A program made the translations under genes and the position numbers. 32,000 nt of DNA from Planctomycetales bacterium (lineage in GTDB: Bacteria; 4484-113; JAFGCY01). The stretch's first letter is position 1; the number at the start of each line of letters is the position of its first letter. The stretch is taken from contig CP060262.1 in assembly GCA_022646745.1 (NCBI GenBank), positions 3,810,001-3,842,000 of the forward strand. Direction: 5' to 3'. Below the pieces are notes generated by a model. The model did no database searches and had not been told where the DNA came from. It worked only from the letters and a program-made list of their open reading frames with translations. Positions 3,001 to 26,300 of this stretch are shown one piece after another.

Positions 3001-5990
3001 ATACCGACTTTACATATGATGCAGACAACCGCATCCTGACCAAGTCGCCGCCAAATGGCCTTGTCGAAACCACCACCTACGACTGGAAGACGCGAGGCGT
3101 GGCAACTGTCACCAACAAGATGTCCGCTTCTTCCGGCGATGACATCACCACAACATATACAAGAGATGACAATGGGCAGGTTACCGGCACGGAAGATGGT
3201 CGAGGCAATGACTGGACCAAGACCTACGATGCCATGGGACGCAACCTGACACTGGTGACACCCAATCCCGGAAGTGGCTCATATACCTGGACCAAGACCT
3301 ACGACGGCAACAACAACATCATCAAGACCAACGATTTCAAGAGCACGGACCATTACTACGCATTTGACGGCCTGAACCGGATGACTGGCCATGGCGCCGA
3401 CAGCAATGCCGATGATGAAACATATACATATGCATGCTGCCGTGAAATGACTGCCTACACGGACAGCAATGGTACTGCCACTCTGGTGTATGACGATCTT
3501 AGCCGCTTGACGAGCAACACTGACAGCCAGGGCAACCAGGTGCAGTATTCCTACGATGCCATGAACCGGACTACAAGGGTCACAGGTCCGCAGGGCACAA
3601 ACTACCGCACAGACTACAGCTTCAACAAGAATGGTTCAACATCTCAAGTGGATGTGTATATCGCCGGTACTGCTGAGAGTTCCACCTATGCATATGACAC
3701 CACATCAGGCAAGGAGACATACAGACGGTTCCCGACCGTATCCAGTGCTTACATCCAGACCGCCAGCAGCTATGACAGCGCTGGTCGCTTGCAGTACGAA
3801 ACCGTCAGCAAGGAAACTGGTTCCACAACCAATATGTACCGGACTTCGTACAGCTACAGCTTTCTGACTTATGGCCGTCAGGTGGTACGTACTGAGCAGG
3901 AATACACCCTGGGGACCTGGCTTGACAAGAACCGCCTGACCTACAAGTGGAACACGCTTGGTTGGCAGACCTATGAGGAACGCGAAGATTATCACCTCGG
4001 TTCCTGGTCGAATCGGTATGACATTTCGCAGGAGTATGACAAGGATGGTAACCGAACCAGGTTCCACAGGAATGTTGCAAGCGGCTACACTTCCAGCTAC
4101 GGCAAGGCGATGGATCTGGGATACACTTTTGATGTACGCAACAACATGTCTGCCATTTCAGATGCGGATGATGCTAACTACGCAGCAGCCGTAACCACTG
4201 ATGCTAACATGAACATCACGGAGATTGACGAATCCTATGACAACGGCAATGGTGTCAATCACCTATATACACAGTTTGCGGTCGATGATTTAAATCGGGT
4301 AACTGAAAACAAGACAAAGAAGTATATTTCGTTGTCCGCCAAATGGCAGTGGACTAGGCGTCAGCATGGTTACAATGCTACCGGTAGCATTGTGAACACG
4401 AATATGAGTCAGTACTGGGATGGCGATACACCTCCTGCCGGTGACTCACTTCAACATATTTATGATCGGGGCCTGATGCTGCAGAACTACGACGGTAGCA
4501 GCACTTATGGCGACCAGTGGCGTTGGGCAGGAGCTCAGAATGCTCACAAGTCACCGCTGCATTCTCCTAACTCTGACACTGCCTCTCAGACTGGTTACAA
4601 CCTTGCCAATGACAAGACTCCTCAGCGCCGGACCTTCCTGAGCCCAACAACTGAAGGGGACCAGCGCAATCTTTACGGCCAAGGCAAGCCCCAGGCCAAG
4701 GATAGCTCAGGAAGTGGCGCTAACTGGTATGTCGGCACAACAAGTCAGCCGCAGACTGCACAGATGGCCAGCATCGAGAGCCGACTGTTCTTCGAGGGCA
4801 CAGTGACGGCAACCGACATGGACCGTGCCACAGACACTCGCGAGAAGGGCCGCCTCGGCATCACTGGCTCTGCGCAGTCCTATGGTGGAAGCAATGGTCG
4901 CGTCACATCAGAGGCAATCGGGCGGGACATCAACCCCCTGGGACGAGGTAATGGCTCTGCCTTGGTTGGTGGCATGATGAATATGGGTATGCTGGCACCT
5001 AGTCTGCCGGGTGGTCGTGGCGAAGTGAATCAGGGGAACAGTGTCAATAATCCTTGTTTTGGATGTTTAAGCGGAGGAGGTGGAACTGGTAATTCTGGGG
5101 GAACAATTCAAGGTGGTTCTTCGAATGATGATCAAACTACTCCACCACCTGGTGGAGTGTTGCTTGATCCAATTCTTATGTGGAACTTCGCATACAAAAC
5201 TCCTGAAAAGTGTAATATCTGGGTCAAACAGCGTCCTACTGTACCCATATTGCCATTTGGCTCAACGGTGTTTGGGTATAATACATTTGAACTCGGTGGA
5301 TTTGAAGTTATCGATAATAATACTGGCATTAGTTTTGATCCTAATGCAGGTGGAAGTTCCGGCAACTCAGGCGGTGGGTTATCCGGCGGAGGTGCTTCTG
5401 GAAATCCTGGAATGCCATCCGATATTCCCTGCAACCCTGTTGAAATGATAAAGAAAAATGCTTGCTTTGCAGCAGCATGGTATACACACAAATTCAAGGT
5501 CTTGGAACTTCGCGCACAAATCTACTGGTACATGGTCGAGCTCACTATAAAGAGATCTTTATTGCTAGCAGGATTATCTGCGGCACTATTGTCAATGTTT
5601 GGCACAGAGGATTTGTTTGATATTATCAGTGGCGGAATTTCAGATCAAGAAATAGAGGGAAACAATGATCCTTGGCTTTGGGATCTGTGGGAAATAATCC
5701 TAGGAGAATTCGAAGAAGTTGCAGACAAGTACACTGACATATTCTATGCATTGTGCATCATTGCGGCAAAAGTGGCAAGCGTTCAGTGGTTCTGGTGGAT
5801 ATCTCAGTGTGATTTATGGAATCTGTTGACACAGGCATGGAACGGCTGCTGCTTAGTGAGTCCTTGTTGTCAACCAAATGGTCTTTACAGGGACTGCAAT
5901 GCTTGTTATGGCCCCGATCCCTTCAACAGCATGAGGCGTTGGTGTGACAATGTATGGGGACCAATTAGAGACTGGGATTGGTTTGTATAG
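1..5990 (+). CDS. RHS/YD-repeat polymorphic toxin, 5'-partial (continues upstream of window)
   Basis: Many YD-repeat units are visible in the translation (YTYDANGN, YDALNRTT, YTYDNLGNVTTITDPN, FTYDADNRILT, YDAMGRNLT, YDDLSRLT). The frame has no stop between nt 3 and the listed ATG at 63 (DAFGNGQEIDRSLDGNSEPE precedes the Met), so the true N-terminus is outside the window. Confidence 0.9.
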   Translation, partial: DAFGNGQEIDRSLDGNSEPEMTINNIQIRYHNGSSWTTQDTITPTYTSDLITRLDVKYWNESGSTTSTAYKIYYSYTSIDSADRLTKVEPKDSSDTALNMEVEYDYNASDGLEMTKIYDTEGSKAGTPYYWSVSYTSDKVTSLVFPIESGTTGTVGFDYSPTAPTGWPGSGALTEVTDARSNSWWYDHDTSGRVTYQADPLWTQTTHESHIITTWDSDNQVTQVDTPKPNNLSGRLTTKNFYNSDKNLEVTQDQYGFLSFYKYGTRASYDTSGTDATVDDIIGIFTPMPNQKAYADGDYTSSETTAPSSPDITDVSWDNTNGYWYYTDAAGSPNTIKLVRTVNDPTYATGTGQLTEMLSCSPENFGDGGNPPTYSLTTSSACNKQEYASTTGDLSKSYTPRQFQNSSLKWTAFTYDQRYGVMTEQENADSLAATANKKTKFYYNDTRTKRTKVELPEDNTNQWTVTVYDDREFVVGTQKPDIQSWSVNPQVNVLEYDYNGNLEKVYQADPAAVGTRWNGNTANGYYHLNTFYYDRINRQIQSDTRVDWDQDATVETLSTYMTYDENGNLERVKGPQYDVGGTGYYSYTFKTYDKLNRIELSYLTEASTNSNLTTPSGSYSENTYSVSGNVVTVTDPRGNATTLLSDFRGAGVQNSKAYTPGGGGSATQTTKQHFGANGQLYWIQNGEGYKMYPQYDDNGRQVYNRRGSDTGATDEIEYDANSNRLYFYTYQDVVDSKVYREKSEYDLMDRMVNSGREQYTGGSWQNWNENTADTTFNYNGWLIKTYEKVNSGKYTERTYDNWGQNLKVKAPEVAHPSGVGTIVYETENTYDVLGRRVSMDDHMDNTTSYTFDVLGRVIEVTDAESYDVDTKYDERGLKAQVTMPAGAVYKYTYDAMQRMTLQRVTANSIDIDTDYTYDANGNTTQVDYPDGGVTKNTYDALNRTTKSEVLLSGMDYLATEMEYDDNNRVTTRTAPGGYDTVYTYDNLGNVTTITDPNSDDTDFTYDADNRILTKSPPNGLVETTTYDWKTRGVATVTNKMSASSGDDITTTYTRDDNGQVTGTEDGRGNDWTKTYDAMGRNLTLVTPNPGSGSYTWTKTYDGNNNIIKTNDFKSTDHYYAFDGLNRMTGHGADSNADDETYTYACCREMTAYTDSNGTATLVYDDLSRLTSNTDSQGNQVQYSYDAMNRTTRVTGPQGTNYRTDYSFNKNGSTSQVDVYIAGTAESSTYAYDTTSGKETYRRFPTVSSAYIQTASSYDSAGRLQYETVSKETGSTTNMYRTSYSYSFLTYGRQVVRTEQEYTLGTWLDKNRLTYKWNTLGWQTYEEREDYHLGSWSNRYDISQEYDKDGNRTRFHRNVASGYTSSYGKAMDLGYTFDVRNNMSAISDADDANYAAAVTTDANMNITEIDESYDNGNGVNHLYTQFAVDDLNRVTENKTKKYISLSAKWQWTRRQHGYNATGSIVNTNMSQYWDGDTPPAGDSLQHIYDRGLMLQNYDGSSTYGDQWRWAGAQNAHKSPLHSPNSDTASQTGYNLANDKTPQRRTFLSPTTEGDQRNLYGQGKPQAKDSSGSGANWYVGTTSQPQTAQMASIESRLFFEGTVTATDMDRATDTREKGRLGITGSAQSYGGSNGRVTSEAIGRDINPLGRGNGSALVGGMMNMGMLAPSLPGGRGEVNQGNSVNNPCFGCLSGGGGTGNSGGTIQGGSSNDDQTTPPPGGVLLDPILMWNFAYKTPEKCNIWVKQRPTVPILPFGSTVFGYNTFELGGFEVIDNNTGISFDPNAGGSSGNSGGGLSGGGASGNPGMPSDIPCNPVEMIKKNACFAAAWYTHKFKVLELRAQIYWYMVELTIKRSLLLAGLSAALLSMFGTEDLFDIISGGISDQEIEGNNDPWLWDLWEIILGEFEEVADKYTDIFYALCIIAAKVASVQWFWWISQCDLWNLLTQAWNGCCLVSPCCQPNGLYRDCNACYGPDPFNSMRRWCDNVWGPIRDWDWFV
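4951..5990 (+). other. C-terminal variable (putative toxin) cassette of the RHS protein
   Basis: It starts just after a degenerate RHS core-end-like motif (GRDINPLGRG, nt ~4921-4950). Composition turns A+T-rich from ~5040. Layout: two Gly/Ser/Asn linkers (GGGGTGNSGG; GGSSGNSGGGLSGGGASGNPG) flank a ~75-aa module, then hydrophobic helices (SLLLAGLSAALLSMFG; IFYALCIIAAKVASVQWFWWI) and a Cys/Trp-rich tail (CCLVSPCCQPNGLYRDCNACYG...RRWCDNVWGPIRDWDWFV). The boundary is approximate. Confidence 0.5.
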
Positions 5991-6240
5991 CAGCCTCAAC
6001 TTGGTCATTTCAACTGATTATTCTGGAGTTCTCGTGAACGAACATTCTAACAGTGATAAATATGAGTATTCTGATATTCTGGAACAGAACAGGTCATTAC
6101 TGGCCGAGAACAAAAGATTAAGAACAAGAATACTGATAATCTTAGTTATCTCCGTCATTGTAATTTTCATTGCCCCTATTGCAAGCAAAGTAATTCAGAA
6201 TATCGCTCTAGGCGAGATAAATCAATCGAATGATAAGTAG
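5944..6240 (+). CDS. small tail-anchored membrane protein, candidate cognate immunity protein
   Basis: ORF immediately downstream of, and overlapping, the RHS stop, in the same A+T-rich block. It has a short coiled segment (LEQNRSLLAENKRLRTR) followed by one clear TM helix (ILIILVISVIVIFIAPIA). GTG at 5944 and ATG at 5950 are both possible starts; no clear SD. The immunity role is inferred from position only. Confidence 0.4.
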   Translation: MTMYGDQLETGIGLYSSLNLVISTDYSGVLVNEHSNSDKYEYSDILEQNRSLLAENKRLRTRILIILVISVIVIFIAPIASKVIQNIALGEINQSNDK

Positions 6241-6340
6241 AATTGGTTTACTTGTGATTGTTTAAGACAACAACTCAAATGTCCGAAATTGGAATTCTGT
6301 ACTGGTTTCTTTCAAGGTTGGATATTAGCTCCACTCACGA

Positions 6341-7981
6341 TTAGTCTTTGTCAATAAAACCCAAGCCCTCTACTTCGGGAGGCAACTTACTAGCGTCCTT
6401 TCTCCCTTCCTTGACCCCTTCAAGATAATGATCGATGGAATCCATCAGGTTCTTCTTGCGTTTTTCCTGTTGATCCTTCAGTTCCACATGGGGACGATAT
6501 TCTTCGTTATAAGGGAAGTTCCTCTTGGGTGCTATCAGGTTGTCGTGTGTCTTGATTAGCTCAGGATGCTCCATTGCTCCCTTAACCATCAGATACGCCT
6601 TGCGTTGCTCCAGTCGAGCGAGACTGTGGAAAGCCACTTCCCACATCTCCGGTAGTGAGAACTTGTTCACCGGTTCCTGGAGCAAGCCTGCTTCACGCTG
6701 TTCCAGTTGCTTCACGATGTTGGAACTTTCCTTGGCTAGCCGTTCGGCATCCTGCCTTGCGACCCGGAAGTAAATCTGTGTTTGGCAGTTGCCAAGAATG
6801 AGAGCCAGCAGTTTGTCATCCAACTGCTTGAGAGACTGGTGCGCCATTGTCAGGCACAGGCCGAACTTTCTTGCTTCTGTAAGTACTGTTGCAAAACTTT
6901 CAGTGGCAATGTTCTGGAACTCGTCTGCATACAGGGCAAAGGGACGGCGAGAATCCATGCCACGGGTCAGGAAGCTGGATTCAATGTCAGCCATCAGCAT
7001 GGCTCCAAACAAGTCAGCACTTAGCCCTAATCTACCCTTGGCCAGATTGACCAGCAGGATTCCACCACTGTCCATAATCTCGCGGACGTTGAACCCACTT
7101 TCCACCTGCCCTAGCCTTGCCCCGATGCGAGGATCAGCCAGGAAGGCCGACACCTTGTTCAGGCTACTCTCAATGAACATCGTTCGTTCTTTGCTATTCC
7201 AGACGTTGTAACGGCCAAAGAAGAAGTCTTTGGTTGTATCAGTGCTGGTCTCGGCCAGCAGCATGTCTCGGAAGTCGGCATCTACAAGAACTTGCTCGAA
7301 TTGGTGCAGGGTCAGGTTGTGCTCGATGAGGAGCGCTAAGGTGTGTCGGAGAATATCTTCCATCCTTGCACCCCAGCTGTCTTCCCATACACGCTTGAAT
7401 GCCAACAATAGCCGAGCTACCTGTTCTGCAATCGGCACACCTTCCCGGCGCTGTAGCGGATTGTATGGAAGCATGTGCTCCATGTCCGCCAGGTCGAGGA
7501 GCACTGCCTGCTCCCGGCGCTCATTGAGGTGCGGGATACTGTCCGTGATGAGATCCCCGTGCGGGTCAATCACACAAAAGCCCATCCCGCTGGCAATGTC
7601 CTGAACGATAAAGTTTTTCAGTAGGGATGATTTGCCAGCACCGGAAGCACCGACCACGTACATGTGAGTGGAGCGAAAGTCGCCTGGGAGCATAAGGGTA
7701 TTGGCAAATCCAGAACTCTTGGTATCGCCAATTGCCAACGAATACTCGCCGTATAGTTCATCGGGAGTGTGGTTTTGTAGAATCCACAAAGCCTCTGCAT
7801 TGGCAGCATTGGCGAGATCCCGCACCTTGAGGAAGCCAGTGGTGTAATCCTCCATGTGATACATGAAGCCGGTCAGGGAGGCACGGATACCCCAGATGAT
7901 GCCAATGGCAACTGCAGTATATAGAAGATATACCAGCGTGCTAAGTACAAAATTCCAAAACAATCCGAACTGAGGAAACAT
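6341..7981 (-). CDS. type IV coupling protein-like P-loop ATPase (TraD/TraG/VirD4 / TrwB-type), N-terminal membrane anchor
   Basis: N-terminal hydrophobic segment FGLFWNFVLSTLVYLLYTAVAIGIIWGI. Walker A VVGASGAGKSS followed by CVIDPHGD. Walker B-like LYADEFQN and TMAHQSLKQL, a layout typical of T4CP/TraM-recognition-domain ATPases. ATG at 7981 is preceded by GGAGG; the listed ORF start at 8002 is a TTG. Confidence 0.75.
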   Translation of the reverse strand: MFPQFGLFWNFVLSTLVYLLYTAVAIGIIWGIRASLTGFMYHMEDYTTGFLKVRDLANAANAEALWILQNHTPDELYGEYSLAIGDTKSSGFANTLMLPGDFRSTHMYVVGASGAGKSSLLKNFIVQDIASGMGFCVIDPHGDLITDSIPHLNERREQAVLLDLADMEHMLPYNPLQRREGVPIAEQVARLLLAFKRVWEDSWGARMEDILRHTLALLIEHNLTLHQFEQVLVDADFRDMLLAETSTDTTKDFFFGRYNVWNSKERTMFIESSLNKVSAFLADPRIGARLGQVESGFNVREIMDSGGILLVNLAKGRLGLSADLFGAMLMADIESSFLTRGMDSRRPFALYADEFQNIATESFATVLTEARKFGLCLTMAHQSLKQLDDKLLALILGNCQTQIYFRVARQDAERLAKESSNIVKQLEQREAGLLQEPVNKFSLPEMWEVAFHSLARLEQRKAYLMVKGAMEHPELIKTHDNLIAPKRNFPYNEEYRPHVELKDQQEKRKKNLMDSIDHYLEGVKEGRKDASKLPPEVEGLGFIDKD

Positions 7982-8048
7982 AGAGGTTCTTCCTCCAATC
8001 AAACTGCAAGATAAGATTCCCGTGCGGAAATCTGTCCGATAACTCCGT

Positions 8049-8276
8049 CTACTTGGAGTCTACTGGCGAAACTCCCCTCAATAGTTCCGAGGGGCGGCAC
8101 TCAAGAGCGCCGGCTAACTTACAAATCGTCAACAGCGTGACATTGTATTTGCCAAGCTCAACGTCCGTGACATACGTGCGATTCAGACCCGACCGGAGAG
8201 CAAGTTCCTCCTGAGAGATACCGAGCTTCTGTCTGCGCCTTCTCACGTTCTGACCAAGGGTCTTGCTCTGCTGCAT
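8049..8276 (-). CDS. XRE-family helix-turn-helix transcriptional regulator
   Basis: Classic HTH_3 sequence LGQNVRRRRQKLGISQEELALRSGLNRTYVTDVELGKYNVTLLTICKLAGAL. I prefer the ATG at 8276 (MQQSKTLGQN...) over the TTG at 8354 listed in the ORF track. Confidence 0.8.
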   Translation of the reverse strand: MQQSKTLGQNVRRRRQKLGISQEELALRSGLNRTYVTDVELGKYNVTLLTICKLAGALECRPSELLRGVSPVDSK

Positions 8277-8324
8277 TCTGGGAAATTGAGCGTATATACT
8301 TGCAATCCACCAGTCCACCGGGTA

Positions 8325-8354
8325 TAACTGACAAACGTCGGATTTAACTGACAA
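8325..8354. promoter_or_regulatory. direct repeat TAACTGACAA x2 (20-bp phasing) in divergent intergenic region; candidate XRE operator
   Basis: TAACTGACAA occurs at 8325-8334 and again at 8345-8354, between the divergent XRE gene and the 8374 gene. Operator function is inferred. Confidence 0.3.
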
Positions 8355-8373
8355 TCAATGTGGGAGGCAGTGG

Positions 8374-8886
8374 ATGAAGTGCCACACTCATAACTTCGAA
8401 GATGCGGTGGCTACTTGCTCAAGCGGATGTGGACGGGGGCTATGCCAGGAATGCGCGACTATGCGCAACCCACCCACCTGCCGCATCTGCACCGAGGCGA
8501 TGCTGGATCATCATCTGTATGACCAGCTGTACGAGATTGCAGAAATCAAGAGAGCGATGGTCATCAATGCGATCATTCTCGCATCGGCAATACTGGGCAC
8601 AATATTCTCTTATTACATCAATGCCAGCGGCAATCAGGACAACGGCGGCCTACTGATCCTCAGCCTGCTGACCTACATTCCCTGCATCTACTGGGGCTGG
8701 AATACGTTCAAGGGATTGATTGACAAGGCACAGGACGCATCCGGTTGCCTGTTCATATTCAATATGCAGGGAGGATGCGTGATGTTCTTCTTTGGGGCAA
8801 TCATCTGCGCTGGATTTGCTCCCATTGTGATTCCATTCCAGCTCTTCAAGCAGTGGCAAGAGCTAAGGGAGTTGCAAGGCTATTAG
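8374..8886 (+). CDS. membrane protein with N-terminal Cys-rich zinc-ribbon/B-box-like motif, function unknown
   Basis: GGGAGG lies 7 nt upstream of the ATG. N-terminus CHTH...CSSGCGRGLCQECA...CRIC, followed by several hydrophobic helices (VINAIILASAILGTIFSYYI; LLILSLLTYIPCIYWGW; VMFFFGAIICAGFAPIVIPF). Confidence 0.6.
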   Translation: MKCHTHNFEDAVATCSSGCGRGLCQECATMRNPPTCRICTEAMLDHHLYDQLYEIAEIKRAMVINAIILASAILGTIFSYYINASGNQDNGGLLILSLLTYIPCIYWGWNTFKGLIDKAQDASGCLFIFNMQGGCVMFFFGAIICAGFAPIVIPFQLFKQWQELRELQGY

Positions 8887-8892
8887 AAAAAT

Positions 8893-8915
8893 GGCGGTCA
8901 CTGGGAATGACCGCC
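8893..8915 (+). terminator. hairpin after the 8374-8886 gene (possible terminator)
   Basis: GGCGGTCA-ctgggaa-TGACCGCC, an 8-bp stem; there is no clear U-tract after it. Confidence 0.3.
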
Positions 8916-9030
8916 GTAAAAGGACATACCTGCAAATATCTCGGAGGGGAGCAGGCAGGCTGAGCATACGCCTCAGCCATGGCCGGTGCAAGAGTTTTTT
9001 GCGTCGGTACACCTGTACTAGGAGAATAGT

Positions 9031-9732
9031 ATGTCAATCACGGATCTGGTTTCGGCGTTTGTGAACCTGCACAGTGCCATCAAGATCGTACTCGGAGCAG
9101 TCCCTTTCCTGATCGGTCTGTATGCCTGGGTGCGCCTGCGAATCAAGTTCCAGCGCTGCTACATCCGGCTGGTAAGGGCACTCCCCCGCTACGTCCAGTA
9201 CCTGAAGGACCGGAAAACCGCCCTGGGTGTGATGGATCACCCGCAGCAACTTCGCTTCGAGGAGGCCGAGAAACGCATCGCCATCGAGCTGAAGCTCAAC
9301 CTCCAACCTTCGATGACAAGCTGGTGGAGTTACCTGAACCCCGGTCAGCGAGACTACCTGTCCTTGGCAATCCGGCAGCTGGAGAGCAGCACATTCTGCA
9401 TTTTCGCGGATGACCTGCTGCAGCGCCTGATCCTCGTACTGGACACCATGACCGACTATGAGAATCTGCGTCGTCAGTCCCGCTGGACGTTGGATGCAAT
9501 GGAGCATTCCCGGCAGCGAGAAAAGTTGCGCAAGCAACTGGAAGAGGACTTTTCCAAGCTGGACCGCCACATTCGCCTGATACAGAAGTATCTGGCCGGT
9601 CAGCTGGACGTGGATATCTGTCCTGCCATCGAGGCAGGGATGTTTAGGAGCTTGCTGGACGAAAAGTACAGCGCATATGAAGCGCTGAGCAGAGAGGATA
9701 TAGAGTTGGCAACGATGGAAGTTGCCAACTAG
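9031..9732 (+). CDS. hypothetical protein, N-terminal TM helix plus helical/coiled-coil body
   Basis: AGGAG lies 8 nt upstream of the ATG. TM segment IKIVLGAVPFLIGLYAWVRL; the rest is charged and helical. The fully overlapping antisense ORF (9034-9777) looks like a shadow ORF. Confidence 0.6.
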   Translation: MSITDLVSAFVNLHSAIKIVLGAVPFLIGLYAWVRLRIKFQRCYIRLVRALPRYVQYLKDRKTALGVMDHPQQLRFEEAEKRIAIELKLNLQPSMTSWWSYLNPGQRDYLSLAIRQLESSTFCIFADDLLQRLILVLDTMTDYENLRRQSRWTLDAMEHSRQREKLRKQLEEDFSKLDRHIRLIQKYLAGQLDVDICPAIEAGMFRSLLDEKYSAYEALSREDIELATMEVAN

Positions 9733-9904
9733 GGATTTAGGTTTAGTTGGTATGTTTAGAAGTAGAATCCCGCGCACAGTCGAACTGAATCCGCCGACCC
9801 TTACGACCGCTCCCCGAGCGGCTGGAGGGGCGGAGTCGGGTTCATTTTGGATGGGAGCAACAGCCTGTTTACACAGTCTGGAAGCGGGTTTACGTGAAGC
9901 ACTG

Positions 9905-9978
9905 CCTATTCCTAGCCTAAGAATACCCTTAGGAATAGGTAAACCAGGACGGAATCAGGTCCTCAGAGGCCGTCCTGG
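9905..9978. other. two adjacent strong hairpins in a ~470-bp non-coding stretch next to the left inverted repeat
   Basis: Hairpin A: CCTATTCCTA (9905-9914) pairs with TAGGAATAGG (9930-9939), 15-nt loop. Hairpin B: CCAGGACGG (9944-9952) pairs with CCGTCCTGG (9970-9978), 17-nt loop. Confidence 0.5.
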
Positions 9979-10198
9979 GACCACTACGAACCGGAGAATT
10001 CTAGGTGAGTGTACTGAGACTAGCAGGTGCATGCATGATGTCCACGTAGGCAAGAGGTTCAAGTTTCCTCTCGTCCGCCATGGTCTCGTGGAAGGCACAG
10101 ATACGAGCCATCAGAAGCAGTTGAATGACAAGGGAGTTGACTTTCTACATGTCATTCATGCTATCCTCGAAATAGGTTCGAAGCTCGTGGAGCAAGGC

Positions 10199-10286
10199 CC
10201 ACCAATCGGAACTTTGGCCGCGCTCCGCGAGGAGCGCGTAAGGCAGATTCCAGTCCCAGAGCAGAATTCGGGAATTCAATTTCAGG
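10199..10286. repeat. left copy of perfect 88-bp inverted repeat (IR-L)
   Basis: By hand alignment, ccaccaatcggaactttggccgcgctccgcgaggagcgcgtaaggcagattccagtcccagagcagaattcgggaattcaatttcagg is the exact reverse complement of 12618-12705. Confidence 0.95.
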
Positions 10287-10330
10287 ATTGGGGGATGCCT
10301 GAGCGTTGTCAGGTATTAATTTCTGAATGT

Positions 10331-11182
10331 ATGCAGTTACGAATCTTTGACGTAGAGCACGGCGATAGCATCTTGATTCTGAGTAACAAGAATGAGGCTG
10401 TTTTGGTGGATTGCGGTTGGAACCATACAACCGGATGGAGAGTATCTGATGGATTGGCAAAGCAGGGCTTTGGAATACGCAGGAAACTTCATCACGTCAT
10501 CATCACTCATCCGGATCAGGATCATGTAGCCGACCTGCCTAATGTGCTTGAGAAGCTCAAGCCAGTCCACGTTTGGCAACACCCTCAGTTGTATCTCAAG
10601 AACATCTCTGAGCTGAAGGCGACACTGAGTCAGGCGCAAAGTGCATACCTGGCCAGTCGCAAGTCCACAGCAGAGCTACAGCCTAGAGAAGCCTCCAGAC
10701 AGTTCAGGACTATGGAACTCCACCAGTTCTACCTGCCGGTTGGTTCGGTCAGGGATGTTAACGACCTGTCACTGGTGACCTTCCTCAAGGAAGATGGCTT
10801 TACCGTCTGTCTGCCGGGGGATCTGAACGCCCGTGGCTGGCGTCTGCACCTACAGAACAAGGCATTCCAGTATTGGCTTCGAGAGACAAACCTGTTCTTT
10901 GCCTCACATCATGGCCGGATGTCCGGCTATCTCGACAAGGTGTTTGAATACCTCTCACCTAAACTGATTGCCATTTCCGATAAGGAGCAGACTAAGGGGA
11001 GGACAGTCACTCAGCGCGCGCCATACACTGACCACTCCAGAGGCGTGAAGATGAAGGATGGCAGCTTTAGGCGCGTCCTGACAACTCGCGGGGATGGCAG
11101 AATTAAGATAGTCGTCAAAGATGGCAACTGGGAGATCAGCACATCACGAATGGAATCCACAAACAAGGGAGGACAGAGATGA
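10331..11182 (+). CDS. MBL-fold metallo-hydrolase, ComEC/Rec2-type
   Basis: MQLRIFDVEHGDSILI...VLVDCG, then metal motif HVIITHPDQDHVADL, then LFFASHHGRMSGY (the HHGS-like motif typical of the ComEC MBL domain). The domain begins at the ATG at 10331. The listed ORF start at 9722 runs through IR-L and the hairpins and is unlikely to be coding. Confidence 0.75.
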   Translation: MQLRIFDVEHGDSILILSNKNEAVLVDCGWNHTTGWRVSDGLAKQGFGIRRKLHHVIITHPDQDHVADLPNVLEKLKPVHVWQHPQLYLKNISELKATLSQAQSAYLASRKSTAELQPREASRQFRTMELHQFYLPVGSVRDVNDLSLVTFLKEDGFTVCLPGDLNARGWRLHLQNKAFQYWLRETNLFFASHHGRMSGYLDKVFEYLSPKLIAISDKEQTKGRTVTQRAPYTDHSRGVKMKDGSFRRVLTTRGDGRIKIVVKDGNWEISTSRMESTNKGGQR

Positions 11183-12801
11183 GAACATATGATCCAAAAG
11201 ACTATGTAACAGACGCTAGTCAGCTGACTCAACAGGAGCTGAGCTATTTCATATACGTCCGTAAGTCCACCGAGGGAGATGAACGACAGGCACAAAGCAT
11301 TCCTGACCAGCTCAAGATTGCCAAGCGGAAGGCTGCTGAGATGGGCCTGAAAGTCGTTGACACCTTCACTGAGAGCAAGAGTGCCAGAAAGCCAGGCAGA
11401 CCAATCTTTATGGAGATGCTGGAGCGCATCCGCAAGGGTGAGGCCAATGGCATTCTGGCATGGCATCCGGACAGGCTGGCTAGAAATGCAGCTGACGGTG
11501 GACAGATTATTGAGCTTCTGGATAGCGGACAGTTGCGAACACTGGAGTTTGCCAACTTCTGGTTTGAGAACACCAGTCAGGGCAAGATGAATCTTGGTCT
11601 GGCTTTCGTACAGTCCAAGTACTACACCGACAACCTCAGTGAAAATGTGTTTCGCGGATTGCAGTCCAAAGCGGATCGGGGCATTTACCCCAATGGTTCC
11701 AAGCGTGGATATCTGACTCATCCCAAGACCAAGTCCCCTGTCCCCGACCCAGAGACATTTCGCCATGTACGGACAGCATATGAGTTGTATTCCACCGGAA
11801 GATACAGCCTGCGTAGTCTGAGCGAGAAGCTGCACAAATTGGGTTTTAGGAACCTCTCCGGTGGCTTACTTGCTAAACGACAAATAGTTGACCTGCTGAC
11901 TGACCCCTTTTACTACGGGGCGTTTGTGTGGAACCGGGAGCTGTATGAAGGCATCCATGATCCAGCTGTATCCAAGGAGCTGTGGGACAAGGTGCAACTG
12001 GTATACATAGACAAGAGCAAACCACAGTCCAAATGGAAGCATCAGTTTCCATTTTGTGGCCTGATGCATTGTGCTGAATGTGGCAGCTCCATTACAGCTG
12101 AACAGCAGACCAAACGGCAGAAGAATGGCAATGTCCATGAGTATGTCTACTACCGTTGCACGAAGAAGAATCACCGTCAGGAGAAGTGTAAGCAACCATT
12201 TGTACGAGATGTGAAGCTGGTGGAGCAGCTTCATTCCATGCTAGGAAGAATATCCCTCCCTGATGAAATGGCAATCTCGATGCTGGAACAGCTGGACAAG
12301 TGGGAATCAGAAGTTGCCAATACCAGTTCCACTGAATTGGATCTTGAGTTGGAAAAGATCACAGCGAAGCTGTGCAGACTTAATGACTTGTTTGTGGATG
12401 GGGAATTAGATCGGGCTGACTATGCAGCCCGCAAGCGCAAGCTGATTGAGAAAAAGATCGCTCTATCAGAGCGCGTGAGTGCCATGCAGTCCAATGGCCA
12501 CTTGGCATGGCTCGAACCTCTCAGGGAGTTCCTGAACACAGTCTGGGAGCGAAATCTCCACGCTGTGGGTGCTGATCTGAATGAACTCCGCAATCATGTT
12601 GCGGAGGTTGGCTCGAACCTGAAATTGAATTCCCGAATTCTGCTCTGGGACTGGAATCTGCCTTACGCGCTCCTCGCGGAGCGCGGCCAAAGTTCCGATT
12701 GGTGGAGGGAACGTGGGCTATGGGGAGAGCATGACACTAGGCTATCAGGATTGGGATTCCAGTTGTTTCCTTGGATTTCATCAGCCAGGAATCACAGTTG
12801 A
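11179..12801 (+). CDS. large serine recombinase (resolvase/invertase N-domain + recombinase domain + zinc ribbon + coiled coil)
   Basis: N-terminal catalytic region YIYVRKSTEGDERQAQSIPDQ and GILAWHPDRLARN. Zinc ribbon CGLMHCAECGSS...YVYYRCTKK. Coiled coil LDLELEKITAKLCRLNDLFVDGELDRADYAARKRKLIEKK. The ATG overlaps the MBL stop (ATGA at 11179-11182). The last 60 codons span IR-R. Confidence 0.9.
   Translation: MRTYDPKDYVTDASQLTQQELSYFIYVRKSTEGDERQAQSIPDQLKIAKRKAAEMGLKVVDTFTESKSARKPGRPIFMEMLERIRKGEANGILAWHPDRLARNAADGGQIIELLDSGQLRTLEFANFWFENTSQGKMNLGLAFVQSKYYTDNLSENVFRGLQSKADRGIYPNGSKRGYLTHPKTKSPVPDPETFRHVRTAYELYSTGRYSLRSLSEKLHKLGFRNLSGGLLAKRQIVDLLTDPFYYGAFVWNRELYEGIHDPAVSKELWDKVQLVYIDKSKPQSKWKHQFPFCGLMHCAECGSSITAEQQTKRQKNGNVHEYVYYRCTKKNHRQEKCKQPFVRDVKLVEQLHSMLGRISLPDEMAISMLEQLDKWESEVANTSSTELDLELEKITAKLCRLNDLFVDGELDRADYAARKRKLIEKKIALSERVSAMQSNGHLAWLEPLREFLNTVWERNLHAVGADLNELRNHVAEVGSNLKLNSRILLWDWNLPYALLAERGQSSDWWRERGLWGEHDTRLSGLGFQLFPWISSARNHS
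12618..12705. repeat. right copy of perfect 88-bp inverted repeat (IR-R), inside the recombinase 3' end
   Basis: Exact reverse complement of 10199-10286. It ends on a recombinase codon boundary (TGG 12703-12705). Confidence 0.95.
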
Positions 12802-12906
12802 ACCTAGCGGATACTTGATCCAATCATTCATCCGGAAATCCATTGAATGCTGTAGGCCGAAAATCACATACAAAGGCCATGCCGTTATTGCCATGTCCTC
12901 CAGTTC

Positions 12907-13626
12907 CTATCCGGCAGGAGCAGCACCCTGTTCAGAAAGTCGCAGCATTTGCGGAAACAGAAGATTGTTCTCCAAATGCACGTGAAGATGGGTGTCTCGC
13001 TCGAGATTCTCCAACCTTGAGATAAGAGCCTGCTGCTTGCGACACATCCCTTCTCCTGCAACATAACCCCTGTGGATCGAACGCATCTCCGACAGCATCT
13101 GCCCGATAGATTCGTGTTCCTCAACGTAACCATCCAGCAGGACATTGACTGCGGATCTGATTTCATTCGTGGACCCTTCCATGATTGGACCGCACAGGGG
13201 GAAGAGCACCTGCTCCTCGTTTCGCATGTGATTTTCCATTTCCCCACGCAGTGCCCTGAACAACTCCAGTGACTTCATGAGTTGGGGCTGCTGGGCCGCA
13301 TGATGGCTGCAGACATGGACATGCAGTTCATCCAGGCGGGGCAATTCCTCCCACAGGAAAGCATGGTGTGTCCCGAGGATATGACCTGCCAGCCTCACCA
13401 GACCGGCATTCTGCAGGTCTATTCCATCGTCTGATGATTCTTCATCACACGCTGACAGAGCAGTCAGGATTTCGTCAGGGTCGATGCCACCCCTCTCGCA
13501 GACCTCACGCAGAGGAACATTGCCACCACAGCAGTAGTCAATGCCGTAGCTCTCAAAGACCCTGGTTCGGGCCATGTTCTCAGTTGCCATTTCCGCTACT
13601 GTCCGCCCGGAATCAAGTGTTTTCAT
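12907..13626 (-). CDS. ric: iron-sulfur cluster repair di-iron protein (RIC; YtfE/ScdA/DnrN family)
   Basis: ScdA_N-type N-terminus VFESYGIDYCCGGNVPLREVCE, followed by hemerythrin-like His/Glu repeats (HILGTHHAFLWEELP; EMENHMRNEEQVLFP; YVEEHESIGQML; THLHVHLENNLLFP). ATG at 13626 with GGAAGGA upstream; the longer listed ORF start (13749) overlaps nosY. Confidence 0.85.
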   Translation of the reverse strand: MKTLDSGRTVAEMATENMARTRVFESYGIDYCCGGNVPLREVCERGGIDPDEILTALSACDEESSDDGIDLQNAGLVRLAGHILGTHHAFLWEELPRLDELHVHVCSHHAAQQPQLMKSLELFRALRGEMENHMRNEEQVLFPLCGPIMEGSTNEIRSAVNVLLDGYVEEHESIGQMLSEMRSIHRGYVAGEGMCRKQQALISRLENLERDTHLHVHLENNLLFPQMLRLSEQGAAPAG

Positions 13627-13648
13627 GTCAGTCCTTCCTACGAGTGAT

Positions 13649-14488
13649 TTAAATATCCTGGCGGCGCAGCAGCAGGGCCGCCAGCCAGCCAGGCAGCACA
13701 ATCCAGCCTGCAAGTGCAGCGCCAAGAAGCAAGAGTGCCTCACTGACACCGCCCAGAGACCTCACCAGCAGCACGCCAGCAGCACCGAACATCTCCTTGC
13801 CTACAGTCGCCAGCAATGTGGATATCCGTGTGGCATCCACCGGGTTCAGGAACAGGCTGATGTAACTCACGCGGTTGGCAACTCCCTCCGGCAGGAGGAA
13901 CCCAAGCCCGATTATGCCAAGGTCATACAGCAGCACCATCACAAACCATGCGATCAGGACCACTCCGTAGCTTCGGTGCGAGCGCTGCATGGCGATTGTC
14001 AGCAAAGCCGCGATGGAGCAGAAGGAGCATGCGATCGCCAGGCTGTACCCCACCAGCACCAGGTAGCTGCCCAGTCCCACGGTCCCAGTCTCCCTGGCGA
14101 TCATGACACCGGGCAGCCCGAAACCGACGAGTGTTGCCAGGCTGAGTGCGGAGCTTACACCGAACAGTTTTCCGGCCACAATCTCCGCGCGGGTGATCGG
14201 TTCTGTGAACAGCTGGTCCGTACAACCACCATCGGCGGTGAAACTCTGGACAGTCATCAGCATCGCGGCTAGTGGAACAATGTACAGGACCAGGTTCAGC
14301 AGGCTGGCAGTCGTACGCTCAAAGCCCTGGAAGCCCGTAAACTCAATGATGCTCAGGCCGAAATAACTGACCGCAGTTGTCAGGACGGTGAAGATCGCGG
14401 CATAGACGAAGATCCAGCGGTTGCGCAGTGCAATGCGCAATTCCTGGCGTGCGATTATTCCGCTGATGCGCAGGGAAATCGTGCTCAT
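13649..14488 (-). CDS. nosY: NosY, ABC-2 type permease of the Cu-processing NosDFY system
   Basis: Polytopic membrane protein directly coupled to nosL (ATGA overlap at 14485-14488), in nosDF(L)Y context. N-terminus MSTISLRISGIIARQELRIALRNRWIFVYAAIF is typical of NosY/ABC-2 permeases. Confidence 0.8.
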   Translation of the reverse strand: MSTISLRISGIIARQELRIALRNRWIFVYAAIFTVLTTAVSYFGLSIIEFTGFQGFERTTASLLNLVLYIVPLAAMLMTVQSFTADGGCTDQLFTEPITRAEIVAGKLFGVSSALSLATLVGFGLPGVMIARETGTVGLGSYLVLVGYSLAIACSFCSIAALLTIAMQRSHRSYGVVLIAWFVMVLLYDLGIIGLGFLLPEGVANRVSYISLFLNPVDATRISTLLATVGKEMFGAAGVLLVRSLGGVSEALLLLGAALAGWIVLPGWLAALLLRRQDI

Positions 14489-14931
14489 GGCTGCCACTCC
14501 AGGACCAGCTGGTCCCACTGCATGACGGTTCCAGGCCATTCCTTGCCCGCCTGCTCAGCTCCTGCCGGGCTCTCGAATGCTCCCAGCCCGTAGCTCATCG
14601 GTGAGGGCAAGTCCTTCGCATGCAGGAAATATGCCTGGTCGGCCCTGAGCCAGGCCTGGCTGTCAAAATCCACCACGAAGGCAACTGCTCCCTCCGGAAT
14701 GCCTGGATCACGGGCCATTTCAACAAGGCAGCCGATGTCATCGAAGTAGAATGCGGTCCTGTCTGTCTTGACGATCTCTGCTGCAAACCTGCGCTGTGAG
14801 ACGGCCATGCGGCAGACCTCACAACTGTCCTCATCCAGCACTATCTCAATCGGTTCCGGTGGACCCTTGCTGCATGATGCAAGAAGCAGGCAGAGCACGA
14901 GCAGGCTACTGGTGGCCCTATTCTTCTTCAT
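14485..14931 (-). CDS. nosL: NosL copper chaperone lipoprotein
   Basis: Lipoprotein signal MKKNRATSSLLVLCLLLASC. NosL-like motifs CEVCRM, FDDIGC and SPMSYGLGAF. Confidence 0.85.
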   Translation of the reverse strand: MKKNRATSSLLVLCLLLASCSKGPPEPIEIVLDEDSCEVCRMAVSQRRFAAEIVKTDRTAFYFDDIGCLVEMARDPGIPEGAVAFVVDFDSQAWLRADQAYFLHAKDLPSPMSYGLGAFESPAGAEQAGKEWPGTVMQWDQLVLEWQP

Positions 14932-15850
14932 TGTCTGCCTCCTCAGCCCCTTTCAGGTACTGCACGTAGACATCCTCCAGCGTGGGGCGCTCGGTGTCGA
15001 AGTCCAACACTGGACCAATACTGCGAAAGCGATCGAGAATCTCCATGCGTTCGGTGCCGCAGCCGGTCACGAGCACGGACTGGCAGTTAAGCGAGGCATC
15101 CAGCGCACCGGCTGCCAGGGCGGCTTCTACATGAGCCGGCTGCGGGTTGCCGACGTTGATCCGCAGTCGGGCCGTGCGGCTGAGACGACTGCGGAGCCTG
15201 GCGACCGGCTCATCTGCGACCGGGGCACCGTCAACCAGCACAATCACACGGCTGGCCAGTGCTTCAACATCAGCGAGGACATGGGTTGACAGGAGGATCG
15301 CCCGTCCATCGTCACGCCACTTTGCCGCCGTCACGCGGAAGTCAAGTGCTCCCTGTGGATCCAGATTGGCTGTCGGTTCATCAAACAGCATCAGGTCCGG
15401 ATCACCGAGACTGCTGAGCGCCAGTGCCAGGCGCTGCCGCATGCCTCCCGAGAGCTGTCCAGAAGTGCGTTCGAAGGCCGATTCCGCCAGTCCACATGCA
15501 AGCAGGGCCTTATCCGCGGAATCGCGTCCCAGTCCCCGCAGGCTGGCATGGAAAACAGCAATCTCTCGCACGGTCAGCTGGGCGGGGAATTGCGCCTGCT
15601 GGGGCAGATAACTGAATTGCCTACGTGCATCCCTGTACTGGCGCTGCAGGTCAAAGCCGTTGACACTGATGATGCCGCTGTCAGCGCGAAGCAGCCCGGC
15701 AATGCAGCGGATCGTGGTTGTCTTACCACCTCCGTTGGGGCCGAGCAGCGCAACCACCTCTCCGGGAGCCACTGCAAGGCTGACTCCGCGGACGGCCTTG
15801 ACGTCACCGTAATTCTTGTAAAGCCCGTCAACTCGCAATACGTCTGTCAT
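14918..15850 (-). CDS. nosF: NosF, ABC transporter ATP-binding protein
   Basis: Walker A GPNGGGKTTT, signature LSGGMRQRLALA, Walker B LMLFDEPTANLD. The ATG at 15850 overlaps the nosD stop (ATGA). The upstream 46 codons of the listed ORF overlap nosD and are rejected. Confidence 0.9.
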   Translation of the reverse strand: MTDVLRVDGLYKNYGDVKAVRGVSLAVAPGEVVALLGPNGGGKTTTIRCIAGLLRADSGIISVNGFDLQRQYRDARRQFSYLPQQAQFPAQLTVREIAVFHASLRGLGRDSADKALLACGLAESAFERTSGQLSGGMRQRLALALSSLGDPDLMLFDEPTANLDPQGALDFRVTAAKWRDDGRAILLSTHVLADVEALASRVIVLVDGAPVADEPVARLRSRLSRTARLRINVGNPQPAHVEAALAAGALDASLNCQSVLVTGCGTERMEILDRFRSIGPVLDFDTERPTLEDVYVQYLKGAEEADNEEE

Positions 15851-17880
15851 TTTGCCAACCCCCTGATACCGAACAGGCAACCGCCCCACCCGAGCAGCGC
15901 CAGCACTGCTAGTGCCAACGATCCCCTGGGGCGGGCCCTGTCTCCAGGTTCCAGTTGCAGCCTGACGCCACTCACGGGATGGGTCCAAGGCTCGGGATCC
16001 AGTACCTCGCTGTGAGGGAGAACCGGGAAACTCCGTTCAGCGAGAACCAGAGCGTCTGCAGCCGCACTTGACAGATAGAGTTTCAGGAGGGGATGGTTTC
16101 CGGTGAGATGCTCGAAGGCATCCTGCAGCTTATGCGGCACATCACCAAGGCCATCCCCATCGAGGTCGTAACCTTCGTAGTCTGAATAGTAATTGCCTCC
16201 GCCTTCAGCTCCCCAGTCCATGGTGGAGCGGCCGATCGTGCGAAGGGTGGCGATGTTCTGGATGAAGTCATTGTGTTCGAAAGTCGTATTCAGTGAACTG
16301 CCGAAGACTACAGCTCCAACATCATTGTAGGCAACAAGGTTATTGCGCAACAGGGTGTTTTCTGCCTGCTCCAGGAAGAATCCGCAGGTGTTGTTGACAA
16401 TCACGTTACGCTCTGCCGTGCAGTCGTAGCAGCTCTGGAAGAGCAGCCCGAATGCATTGTGCCCGAGCCTGTTGTTCAGGATCAGGTTCTCACTGAAGCT
16501 GACATTGTTCGTGTACATGATTGCCGCACCGGCCACGCTGTCGCGGAAGACGTTGCGGTAGAACTCGTTGGCTTCGCAGTACATGTAATGCACTCCGTAG
16601 CGCAGTTCGGCGAAGCGGTTGTCCTCCACGACGTTGTAGTTGGAGTGGTCAAAGTAGACACCGTCGCGCACTGTCTTGACATCGTTGTCCCGTATCACGC
16701 AGTTATGGCTGTCGTACAGATGCAAGCCTGCTCCGCGGCTGCCGATGCCGACATCCGCACGGCCGCGGATCACGTTCCCCTCGACGGTGGCCCTTTCAGC
16801 GAGACGGAACATCACCCCGAAGAGGTTGTCACTGAGCCTGCAGTCCTTCACCTGTGCGTCATTCGCCGTAATGTGGATTCCCGCGTCACTGTGCATCATG
16901 TCCTTGCCGGAGCCTGAGATGTCCAGGCCGGCCAGGCTGACACCGTCCGCGGCAATCGTGACTACACTTCCCTGCCGCTCGCCGATGATCCGCGGGAATT
17001 CCACCCCCCGGATGCTGAGCTGCTTGTCAATGACGAGGTTTCCCGGGTATTCACCGGGCAGAATGACTATCTGGTCACCGGGACCTGCTGCGGTGATGGC
17101 CGCCGCGGGTGTGGTGAATTGTCCGCCGGGACCCACTCGCAGCTCAGCTGCATCCGCGGTGGAAGGCAGCAATGGGGCGGCAAGCAGGATGAATACTGCC
17201 AGTCCTGCTCCGTTCCCGGCCGAAAGTTCCGATCGCTGCCGGCGCCAGTCTCTCCAGGCCTGCCAGAGGGCGATGAAGGTGGCGAGTGCCAGGATGCCCC
17301 CGAAGATCATCAGGGCATAGCTGGCCTCCCCCGGGAAACTCTCAACCCAGAAGTTGGCAACCTTCACCCTGCCGTAGAGCGGCGGAGTGAAGGGCTCGAC
17401 CTTGATGGGCGCCTCCGGGTCCAGGATGTGGCCGTAGTTGTAGAGCTTGTTGTAGAAGTCCCAGAAGCTGAACAGTGCGAAGTACACGAACAGCATGAAG
17501 ACGTCAACGATGTCCCGCAGCCTGCCGAGGAAGATCAGCCGCAGGCACAGCAGTCCGAATATCCCGATCGCGAAGGGCAGCCAGAGGAACTCGGCGAAGT
17601 CACTCTCCAGCAGCGGCTTCATGCCGATGTAGTGGTTCAGTGAGTTGATCTCGCGCAGGTCGTCACGATCCGCAGTCTTCTGACCCTCGAGATGGTCGAC
17701 ATGGATTGCCATCTTCAGCGGATCGGGGTACTGGTTGCTGGTGAAGCTCATGGTCCACAGCGGTCCCCCGATCCACACGAAGGGCAGTGCCGCCAGGGAG
17801 ATGAGCAGCAGCAGCCGGACCAGCCAGCCAAGTGGCCGTCCGAAGAAATCATAGTAAGCTTCCATCCTGTGCTGCATCAT
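15847..17880 (-). CDS. nosD: NosB-like four-TM membrane domain fused in frame to NosD (periplasmic parallel beta-helix Cu-processing protein)
   Basis: The N-terminal ~225 aa carry four hydrophobic helices (LVRLLLLISLAALPFVWIGG; FLWLPFAIGIFGLLCLRLIFLG; VFMLFVYFALFSFWDF; YALMIFGGILALATFIALWQAW), sitting directly after nosZ where clade II clusters carry nosB. A signal-peptide-like stretch follows (GLAVFILLAAPLLPSTADA), then NosD beta-helix repeats (GVSLAGLDISGSG..., NVIRGRADVGIGSRGAGLHLYDSHNCVIRDNDV...). I found no stop and no ATG/GTG between the two parts. GGGAG lies 5 nt upstream of the ATG at 17880. Confidence 0.8.
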   Translation of the reverse strand: MMQHRMEAYYDFFGRPLGWLVRLLLLISLAALPFVWIGGPLWTMSFTSNQYPDPLKMAIHVDHLEGQKTADRDDLREINSLNHYIGMKPLLESDFAEFLWLPFAIGIFGLLCLRLIFLGRLRDIVDVFMLFVYFALFSFWDFYNKLYNYGHILDPEAPIKVEPFTPPLYGRVKVANFWVESFPGEASYALMIFGGILALATFIALWQAWRDWRRQRSELSAGNGAGLAVFILLAAPLLPSTADAAELRVGPGGQFTTPAAAITAAGPGDQIVILPGEYPGNLVIDKQLSIRGVEFPRIIGERQGSVVTIAADGVSLAGLDISGSGKDMMHSDAGIHITANDAQVKDCRLSDNLFGVMFRLAERATVEGNVIRGRADVGIGSRGAGLHLYDSHNCVIRDNDVKTVRDGVYFDHSNYNVVEDNRFAELRYGVHYMYCEANEFYRNVFRDSVAGAAIMYTNNVSFSENLILNNRLGHNAFGLLFQSCYDCTAERNVIVNNTCGFFLEQAENTLLRNNLVAYNDVGAVVFGSSLNTTFEHNDFIQNIATLRTIGRSTMDWGAEGGGNYYSDYEGYDLDGDGLGDVPHKLQDAFEHLTGNHPLLKLYLSSAAADALVLAERSFPVLPHSEVLDPEPWTHPVSGVRLQLEPGDRARPRGSLALAVLALLGWGGCLFGIRGLAK

Positions 17881-17908
17881 CTGCTCCCTGGTGCTGATAG
17901 TCCTCTGA

Positions 17909-19792: not shown

Positions 19793-19802
19793 TGCTACCT
19801 CC

Positions 19803-21053: not shown

Positions 21054-21067
21054 GGTTGCGCCTCCTC

Positions 21068-22432: not shown

Positions 22433-22434
22433 TT

Positions 22435-25338: not shown

Positions 25339-25352
25339 CTCAGCTCCATACT

Positions 25353-26226: not shown

Positions 26227-26300
26227 TGACCTGCCCCCCAATAACTGGTCCACTTGTGAAGTGATAGATCGGACCGGAAACATATTGGAGGAGCAGGCAA

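Follow-up and report, generated by a model that had tools for sequence, protein, structure and literature searches.

What does a perfect 88-nucleotide (nt) inverted repeat do when one of its copies lies inside the coding sequence of a recombinase? The question is raised by a 32,000-nt stretch from a Planctomycetales bacterium (assembly GCA_022646745.1, contig CP060262.1, positions 3,810,001–3,842,000; the window hereafter), in which a metallo-β-lactamase (MBL)-fold hydrolase gene and a large serine recombinase (LSR) gene are bracketed by arms at 10199–10286 and 12618–12705. We propose that the repeat is the right-end recombination module of an integrated element, combining a particular attachment-site anatomy with a reactivation switch; for the two parts taken jointly we judge the case evenly balanced. 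An inverted-repeat search of the window returned arms of 88 nt at 100% complementarity, separated by 2331 nt, in agreement with the first-pass annotation of this DNA, which had read 10199–10286 as the exact reverse complement of 12618–12705. A perfect inverted repeat of this length is not expected by chance in 32 kb, and self-BLAST of the window found no further copy of either arm.

The right arm (12618–12705, plus strand) encodes LSR codons 481–509 (LKLNSRILLWDWNLPYALLAERGQSSDWW) and reaches a codon boundary at 12705. Beyond it the open reading frame (ORF) continues for 31 codons and a stop (12706–12801, plus strand; RERGLWGEHDTRLSGLGFQLFPWISSARNHS) into flanking DNA that is not tRNA-like. 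The left arm, an inverted copy of codons 481–509 on the minus strand, is non-coding; its outer flank (10145–10198, minus strand) reads ALLHELRTYFEDSMNDM in the same frame as the right-arm LSR codons, closing with a TAG stop at 10145–10147. Translation thus bears out both tail readings of the first-pass annotation, together with the tail-swap geometry that it had deduced from a right arm ending at codon 509 and an outer minus strand that reads in frame.

The LSR gene (11179–12801, plus strand) has 540 codons, of which 1–509 are conserved and 510–540 are read-through into the flank. Its product matches the Pfam families Resolvase (PF00239, 4.9e-21, residues 24–168), Recombinase (PF07508, 1.2e-11) and Zn_ribbon_recom (PF13408, 1.5e-10); the nucleophile S30, within YVRKSTEGDERQ, is invariant across 33 homologues, and the zinc-ribbon cysteines C298, C301, C327 and C337 are likewise invariant among homologues. 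A structure model of homologue P0009 places long helices at 357–437 (the inserted coiled coil) and begins a β-hairpin at the G-S-N residues. Aligned with 40 homologues of 35–62% identity, the window LSR is conserved through ...LLAERGxxxDWW, the outer end of the right arm; conservation is lost after W509 and the tails diverge from there. Many homologue tails read xRxDSNPR, the antisense translation of a tRNA T-arm, and others read xLLxxLRT..., resembling the alternative tail of the window. This abrupt stop at W509, taken with the antisense-tRNA tails, points to an attachment-site crossover inside the LSR ORF. The two tail types occur among close relatives, as LSR clusters of at least 90% identity mix native tails (...WLRILNEIRTFFKENPEQE) with many tRNA-antisense ones; most of the LSRs with a native tail come from contigs no longer than 4 kb.

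Scans of GTDB genomes and JGI metagenomes yielded a set of 172 loci, 104 of which, from many assemblies and phyla, have one arm covering the 3' end of the LSR gene and its inverted counterpart a short way upstream. Arm length ranges from 44 to 199 nt; 45 pairs are perfect, 24 are 98–99.9% identical and the remainder fall to 79%. The bracket recurs in L001, L002 and L003 (arms of 81, 78 and 172 nt; spacers of 2342–2345 nt), whose LSRs are only ~55% identical to that of the window. Relatives that bracket the LSR alone have spacers of ~1.4–1.6 kb and come mainly from candidate phyla radiation (CPR)/Patescibacteria bins, and the bracket is absent in more distant LSRs (36% identity or less). L007, with no left arm, is a 5'-deleted remnant, since the 5' end of its MBL gene is missing too. 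Both inner and outer arm boundaries are conserved among loci, the inner edge falling 0–18 nt after the G-S-N codons in most relatives.

Where arms have diverged, mismatches in the LSR frame comprise 103 synonymous (36%) and 183 non-synonymous changes, 4 of them making stops, a pattern consistent with coding constraint on at most one arm. Arm identity would then be highest in young or active copies and decay later. The mismatch rate is flat along the arms, and we rejected a gene-conversion gradient from the core on that ground. Also discarded as a general feature was a small gene for a C-terminal fragment in the left arm (a 94-amino-acid (aa) ORF in L009), because the window version has only a TTG start and no ribosome-binding site, and diverged arms are without coding constraint.

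The DNA on the far side of the right arm identifies the usual target. In 59 of the 74 evaluable loci (those with arms clear of contig ends), the 3' end of a tRNA gene on the minus strand reaches across the right arm's outer edge, the median overlap being 6 nt, and 15 isotypes are represented; over all copies, a tRNA follows the LSR 3' end directly in 94, with at least 15 isotypes among them. The tRNA 3' end is kept intact in these 94 relatives. Ten small elements make the anatomy legible at both ends: directly next to the first inverted-repeat pair stands a second, whose far copy marks the other end of the element (attL), and the rho-independent terminator belonging to the tRNA sits right at that junction. 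The sequence common to attL, internal attP and attR is just 3–8 nt long in these ten: the final nucleotide of the acceptor, the discriminator and one or more bases after it. Such features are those expected of a short-core serine integrase inserted at a tRNA 3' end. In L003 and L167, complete attP regions stand on both sides of the LSR, as in a two-attP circle or a tandem array. Tandem arrays at one tRNA are seen in L150, L153, L157 and L172 (also L103); an inner LSR of such an array reads into the P' arm of another element, gaining a foreign native-type tail.

The left arm continues into a flank with its own conserved content. In ~60 of the 74 evaluable relatives, the DNA outside the left arm encodes a native tail of the form x-L-[LFY]-x-x-[IAVL]-R-T-[YFH]-F-[EQ] followed by a stop. 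Its codons vary synonymously (CGA, AGA, CGC and CGG for Arg; ACC, ACT, ACG and ACA for Thr), from which we conclude that the tail peptide itself is under selection. As to which of the two tails is conserved, a question left by the first-pass annotation, homologues keep the ALLHELRTYFE... type, and the present 31-codon tail is an unconserved read-through. A GC-rich hairpin usually follows just past the tail stop codon.

The same flank carries a T-loop-like motif (T[CT]GAAC) whose offset from the tRNA-end anchor is 21–22 nt, compared with 17 nt in tRNA flanks. In LSR attachment sites, the motif recognized by the zinc-ribbon domain sits ~5 bp further out in attP than in attB half-sites (PMC3783163). 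The 4–5 bp outward shift in the left flanks matches this rule and therefore identifies them as P', as opposed to attB. The shift is seen in relatives; in the window just the P'-type half-site is recognizable, with its motif at 10175–10183 (GGTTCGAAG on the plus strand, CTTCGAACC on the minus strand), the putative recognition motif for the zinc-ribbon domain. With high confidence, then, left arm and outer flank together would form a complete inverted attP that contains the native C terminus of the LSR.

On this basis the LSR is very probably the integrase of the element, holding the crossover within its own ORF after codon 509. The right arm would be the LSR 3' end up to the crossover point, that is, the P arm of attR, with the core placed at 12700–12707 on the outer edge of this arm and its mirror at 10197–10204. 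Beyond the crossover would lie, in relatives, a tRNA-gene 3' end of nearly any isotype and, in the window, a non-tRNA site. The left arm would be the P arm of the internal attP copy, which would contain in inverted orientation the P arm, core, P' half-site with motif, native C-terminal peptide and stop. A crossover inside the LSR ORF means that integration would swap the conserved 17-residue tail for read-through codons. The excised element would carry two inverted attP regions.

As to function, we lean, with rather less than even confidence, to the spare attP being a rarely thrown switch that reactivates the integrase. Integration would disable the enzyme through loss of its tail and, where a tRNA gene is the target, through the head-on orientation of its gene to tRNA transcription. 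The inverted spare attP would make the MBL–LSR cassette invertible: arm-to-arm recombination, whether by host homologous recombination or by the LSR, would rejoin the LSR body and its native tail; where the target is a tRNA gene, it would also place the LSR gene behind that gene and in the same direction. The switch would have to be thrown rarely, or the flipped state be short-lived. More tentatively still, the family might govern its own directionality with no separate factor, integration locking the enzyme and a rare flip unlocking it by rebuilding the full gene downstream of the tRNA promoter; a host half-site made of the tRNA T-arm and acceptor end would let the element enter very different phyla. 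In serine integrases the attP × attB reaction runs one way and a directionality factor reverses it; no separate factor of this kind is evident in the 3–7 kb relatives.

Both orientations exist among the relatives. A first screen of the evaluable loci returned no flipped locus; L171 was then found by way of a native-tail LSR on a long contig. Its order is host dnaX, tRNA-Gln on the plus strand abutting the left arm, an intact LSR, right arm, core, and P' with tail and hairpin, and beyond P' come restriction-modification genes as cargo, then a P' arm in inverted orientation and host DNA. Two more flipped loci, L017 and L127, emerged when all loci were screened again; in each, the arm preceding the LSR likewise adjoins a plus-strand tRNA. 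Flipped isomers have a complete LSR that lies 3' of the tRNA gene and points the same way, and standard isomers have a tail-swapped LSR that converges on the tRNA gene. The window copy is of the standard type: its tail is swapped, its arms are perfect and its P' flank is intact. Contig breaks were set aside as evidence of two orientations, their positions fitting assembler k-mer limits.

Several observations weigh against a switch of this kind. Flipped and standard isomers stand at 3 (L017, L127 and L171) to 94 among relatives, so that 3 of ~97 tRNA-linked copies are flipped, a ratio far from equilibrium that argues against a freely flipping device. These three could equally have arisen through homologous recombination between arms, LSR-mediated inversion or integration via the second attP. 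Canonical LSRs do not recombine attP with attR, which makes a self-catalysed flip unorthodox (PMC3783163). Once diverged, the left arm gives no sign of constraint, given its 36% synonymous changes, their even spread and the stops, which also fits a passive or purely DNA-binding role. The P0009 model draws the LSR tail as a helix at a predicted local distance difference test score (pLDDT) below 50, and therefore permits no structural conclusion on the tail. The window itself has no tRNA at attR, and its attL is off-window.

Some of these facts suit the main rival, in which the inverted attP is a non-inverting cis-acting site bound by the LSR upstream of the MBL–LSR operon: an operator for autorepression, a block to transcription in the form of an insulator or terminator, or an accessory site modulating attL × attR synapsis. 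Arm identity would then reflect passive gene conversion between inverted copies that lie close together, and the rare flipped isomers would be accidental. Autoregulation via sites of their own is established for serine recombinases, Tn3 resolvase among them. Only 9 nt separate the left arm from the MBL start, so that the operon promoter or 5' untranslated region must overlap the copy, and the GC-rich hairpins in both arms and P' flanks, the 94:3 orientation bias and the unconstrained left arm all sit comfortably with such a site. Yet ~50 bp would suffice for binding, and the copies span a 55–200 nt P arm plus a 95–410 nt P' arm and always hold the whole tail ORF in frame; the position of the crossover inside the ORF is left unexplained; and no sigma-70-like promoter is detectable in the window copy, by a scan for sigma-70 promoters and terminators (9600–13100) that gave fewer matches than shuffled sequence and is uninformative. 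We regard the cis-site explanation as possible, though somewhat less likely than the switch. Less probable again is that the repeat serves the excised circle, two inverted attPs splitting it into recombinase and cargo segments so that either can integrate, with the LSR-truncating isomer accumulating as the locked form. The attPs on both sides of the LSR in L003 and L167 suit this scheme, as do the short contigs (4 kb or less) that carry most native-tail LSRs, the existence of both isomers and the presence of A arms and B arms together in small elements. Tandem arrays (L150, L153, L157 and L172) yield the same LSR-to-P' junctions, however, leaving the circles unproven; no replication functions are seen in the 3–7 kb elements; and without added selection, equivalent attPs should yield the two isomers in equal numbers (1:1).

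The alternatives offered by the first-pass annotation, namely terminal repeats of a small transposon, a relic of a duplicated 3' end and an assembly artefact, did not survive the comparative survey. A compact 2.5-kb unit with perfect inverted ends does look like a small autonomous MBL–LSR transposon, but its flanks are not arbitrary, with a conserved P' tail and terminator on one side and a tRNA 3' end on the other; the unit always ends a larger element, cargo or conjugation genes lying between attL and the left arm; and there are neither target-site duplications nor a second copy in the window, making a transposon highly improbable. A decaying relic or an artefact deserves equally little credence. 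Some contigs do break inside the arms; against this, 104 loci share the architecture, across many assemblers and sample types and with long contigs among them, and 45 pairs are perfect with conserved boundaries even though arm sequence varies widely among loci. We also considered, and rejected by reasoning, single-stranded folding into a duplex attP (as in CTX phage) or an end splint, because an LSR acting on such a stem would linearize the chromosome.

Family-wide, P arms fold more stably than their shuffles (mean z −1.8, against −0.2 for control segments). In the window, the right arm contains a GC-rich hairpin at 12667–12684 (GCGCTCC-TCGC-GGAGCGC, in the ALLAER codons, 21 nt from the outer edge), mirrored at 10220–10237 in the left arm (GCGCTCC-GCGA-GGAGCGC). 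The position of the hairpin is kept in relatives of differing sequence (L167 arms and ILASRG variants). In L167, hairpins lie within 1619–1888 and 3382–3671, and changes within the hairpins of relatives are compensating. The P-arm hairpin may terminate tRNA transcription in place of the native terminator, which the element moves away to attL. Two direct GCTCGAAC T-loop-like motifs occur on the plus strand in the LSR 3' region, at 12510–12517 (WLEP) and 12611–12618 (GSN), the second at the inner edge of the right arm.

The other gene of the cassette encodes an MBL-fold hydrolase (10295–11182, plus strand) with a ComEC-C-terminal-like HxDxDH motif, matching Pfam Lactamase_B (1.9e-9) and, weakly, ComEC_Rec2 and Avs1a MBL. 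With the LSR matches given above, this supports the domain calls of the first-pass annotation, a ComEC-type MBL protein beside an LSR. The gene is translationally coupled to that of the LSR, the two ORFs overlapping by ATGA at 11179–11182. Its start is most likely the ATG at 10295, 9 nt past the inner edge of the left arm; a 486-aa ORF from 9722 is a mechanical extension. The MBL partner is limited to the clade of the window, most relatives bracketing the LSR alone; within this clade it is 66–81% identical at every locus, exceeding the LSR (46–57%). A role as a nuclease, or as a directionality-factor-like partner of the LSR, is speculative. Searching PLSDB plasmids and INPHARED phages by tblastn gave LSR matches of 30% identity or less, under generic names.

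The cassette stands at a compositional boundary, with a GC content of 51% to its left and 60% to the right of 12907. The remainder of the integrated element within the window (63–10144) encodes an RHS-repeat protein, a coupling protein, a helix-turn-helix (HTH) regulator and unassigned ORFs. The RHS-repeat protein (63–5990) is 1975 aa long, and L001 likewise has DUF6531/RHS genes left of its MBL–LSR cassette; toxin cargo may be shared. The coupling protein (6341–8002) is VirD4/TraD-like by Pfam and NCBIfam, and a backbone of Replic_Relax, coupling protein, MBL and LSR followed by host genes recurs in L002 and in the P0003 contig. The Replic_Relax gene of these two syntenic contigs is not within the window. 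By GC step and gene content, the cassette is therefore the right edge of an integrated mobile element. There is no second direct copy of the P' arm in the window, and so attL, the left end, lies off-window.

At the right junction, neither ARAGORN (whole window) nor an Rfam E-value scan (9500–13500) found a tRNA or other RNA, and the window sequence has no T-loop-like motif at the expected offset beyond 12706; unlike in the tRNA-linked relatives, the element does not abut a tRNA 3' end. Because the repeat ends at the usual core position, we infer integration at a secondary, non-canonical site. Other non-tRNA right flanks among the relatives are those of L032, L037, L084 and L164. From the crossover point to a ScdA-like gene, 12706–12906 comprises 200 nt at 47% GC and does not correspond to a tRNA or to a flank of the P' type. 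A clade-II-type nitrous oxide reductase cluster (12907–25449, minus strand, ~60% GC) lies to the right of the element, with genes for ScdA/hemerythrin, nosY-like, nosL, nosF, nosD and nosZ, and for a c-type cytochrome, cytochrome b, an FAD/FeS oxidoreductase and an Rrf2 regulator. After 26000 the GC content returns to ~51%; this part holds an HTH_21 ORF (26603–27823) resembling the N terminus of an IS3 transposase and a 1169-aa ORF (28432–31941) with no Pfam match. The region 26000–32000 may be a second mobile region flanking the nos cluster.

Known systems share parts of this arrangement. Large serine integrases (phiC31, Bxb1, A118/LI, SPbeta SprA, TnpX and CcrAB) have the same domain set (catalytic Ser, recombinase, zinc ribbon and coiled coil), a short core and a motif ~5 bp further out in the phage-type half-site; unlike them, the present family targets tRNA 3' ends of many isotypes in relatives, crosses over inside the integrase ORF and keeps a second inverted attP beside the gene. 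A split integrase ORF and a tRNA target recall SSV1, a fusellovirus with a tyrosine integrase whose attP lies inside its own gene. As there, the core falls in the ORF, with conservation and repeat ending at codon 509/510 and tails differing with the flank. In contrast to SSV1, the recombinase here is of the serine type, the hosts are bacteria (including CPR), only the last ~17 codons are detached and a spare inverted copy of the detached part is kept within the element.

The invertases Hin, Gin, Cin and Pin likewise have the recombinase gene in or beside a segment between inverted sites whose inner half-sites are identical and outer ones differ. In the Gin and Cin tail-fibre switches inversion alters a protein C terminus; in the present case that protein is the recombinase itself. 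The invertases are ~190-aa proteins with a C-terminal HTH, whereas this is a 540-aa LSR; their sites are 26–34 bp against arms of 55–200 nt; and here there is a 94:3 orientation bias and no known enhancer. In the yeast 2-micron FLP/FRT system, two inverted regions split a circle, one segment of which encodes the recombinase, much like the excised form envisaged here. That recombinase is a tyrosine enzyme, whereas ours is a serine enzyme, and the present element is integrative, with no evident origin and a circle that is inferred. Finally, tRNA-targeting islands and tycheposons are also small cargo elements beside tRNA genes, sometimes in tandem, yet use mainly tyrosine recombinases and direct tRNA-fragment repeats (910/937), in place of an LSR, a 3–8 nt core and inverted repeats. 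In the literature on LSRs, tRNA targeting, tycheposons and Patescibacteria we found no description of this architecture, nor any paper on LSRs generic for tRNA 3' ends, on a crossover in the integrase's own ORF or on an inverted spare attP. A widespread mobile-element family bearing a spare inverted attP has apparently gone undescribed.

The smallest members, 3–7 kb CPR elements (L008, L012, L043, L047 and L171), carry one to few accessory genes between P' arms. Going by sequence appearance, cargo in L008, L012 and L043 includes NirK-like multicopper, type IV pilin-like and patatin-like genes, and L171 has a restriction-modification system by Pfam; in nearly every case the largest cargo ORF and the LSR are on opposite strands. 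The clusters of P0067, P0097 and P0049, drawn at 90% LSR identity or more, include members labelled Candidatus Kuenenia, Portnoybacteria and Elusimicrobiota, as well as the isolate Schleiferia thermophila (WP_114366449.1) and a Pacearchaeota archaeon bin, which suggests either a very broad host range or mis-binning of small contigs.

Serine integrases are major tools for genome engineering, and the control of their direction is an active structural question. If our leading explanation holds, integration rewrites the C terminus of the enzyme that performs it, and a built-in inverted copy of the attachment site could act as a DNA-level switch or as an accessory site. A near-universal target, the tRNA 3' end, may then explain why LSR clusters of at least 90% identity cross phyla, from CPR bacteria and anammox planctomycetes to Elusimicrobiota, a Bacteroidota isolate and an archaeal bin; in metagenome-assembled genomes, errors of binning may contribute. 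The 3–7 kb versions, an LSR with one or a few cargo genes, would on the same terms look like a main vehicle of accessory genes in the tiny genomes of CPR bacteria.

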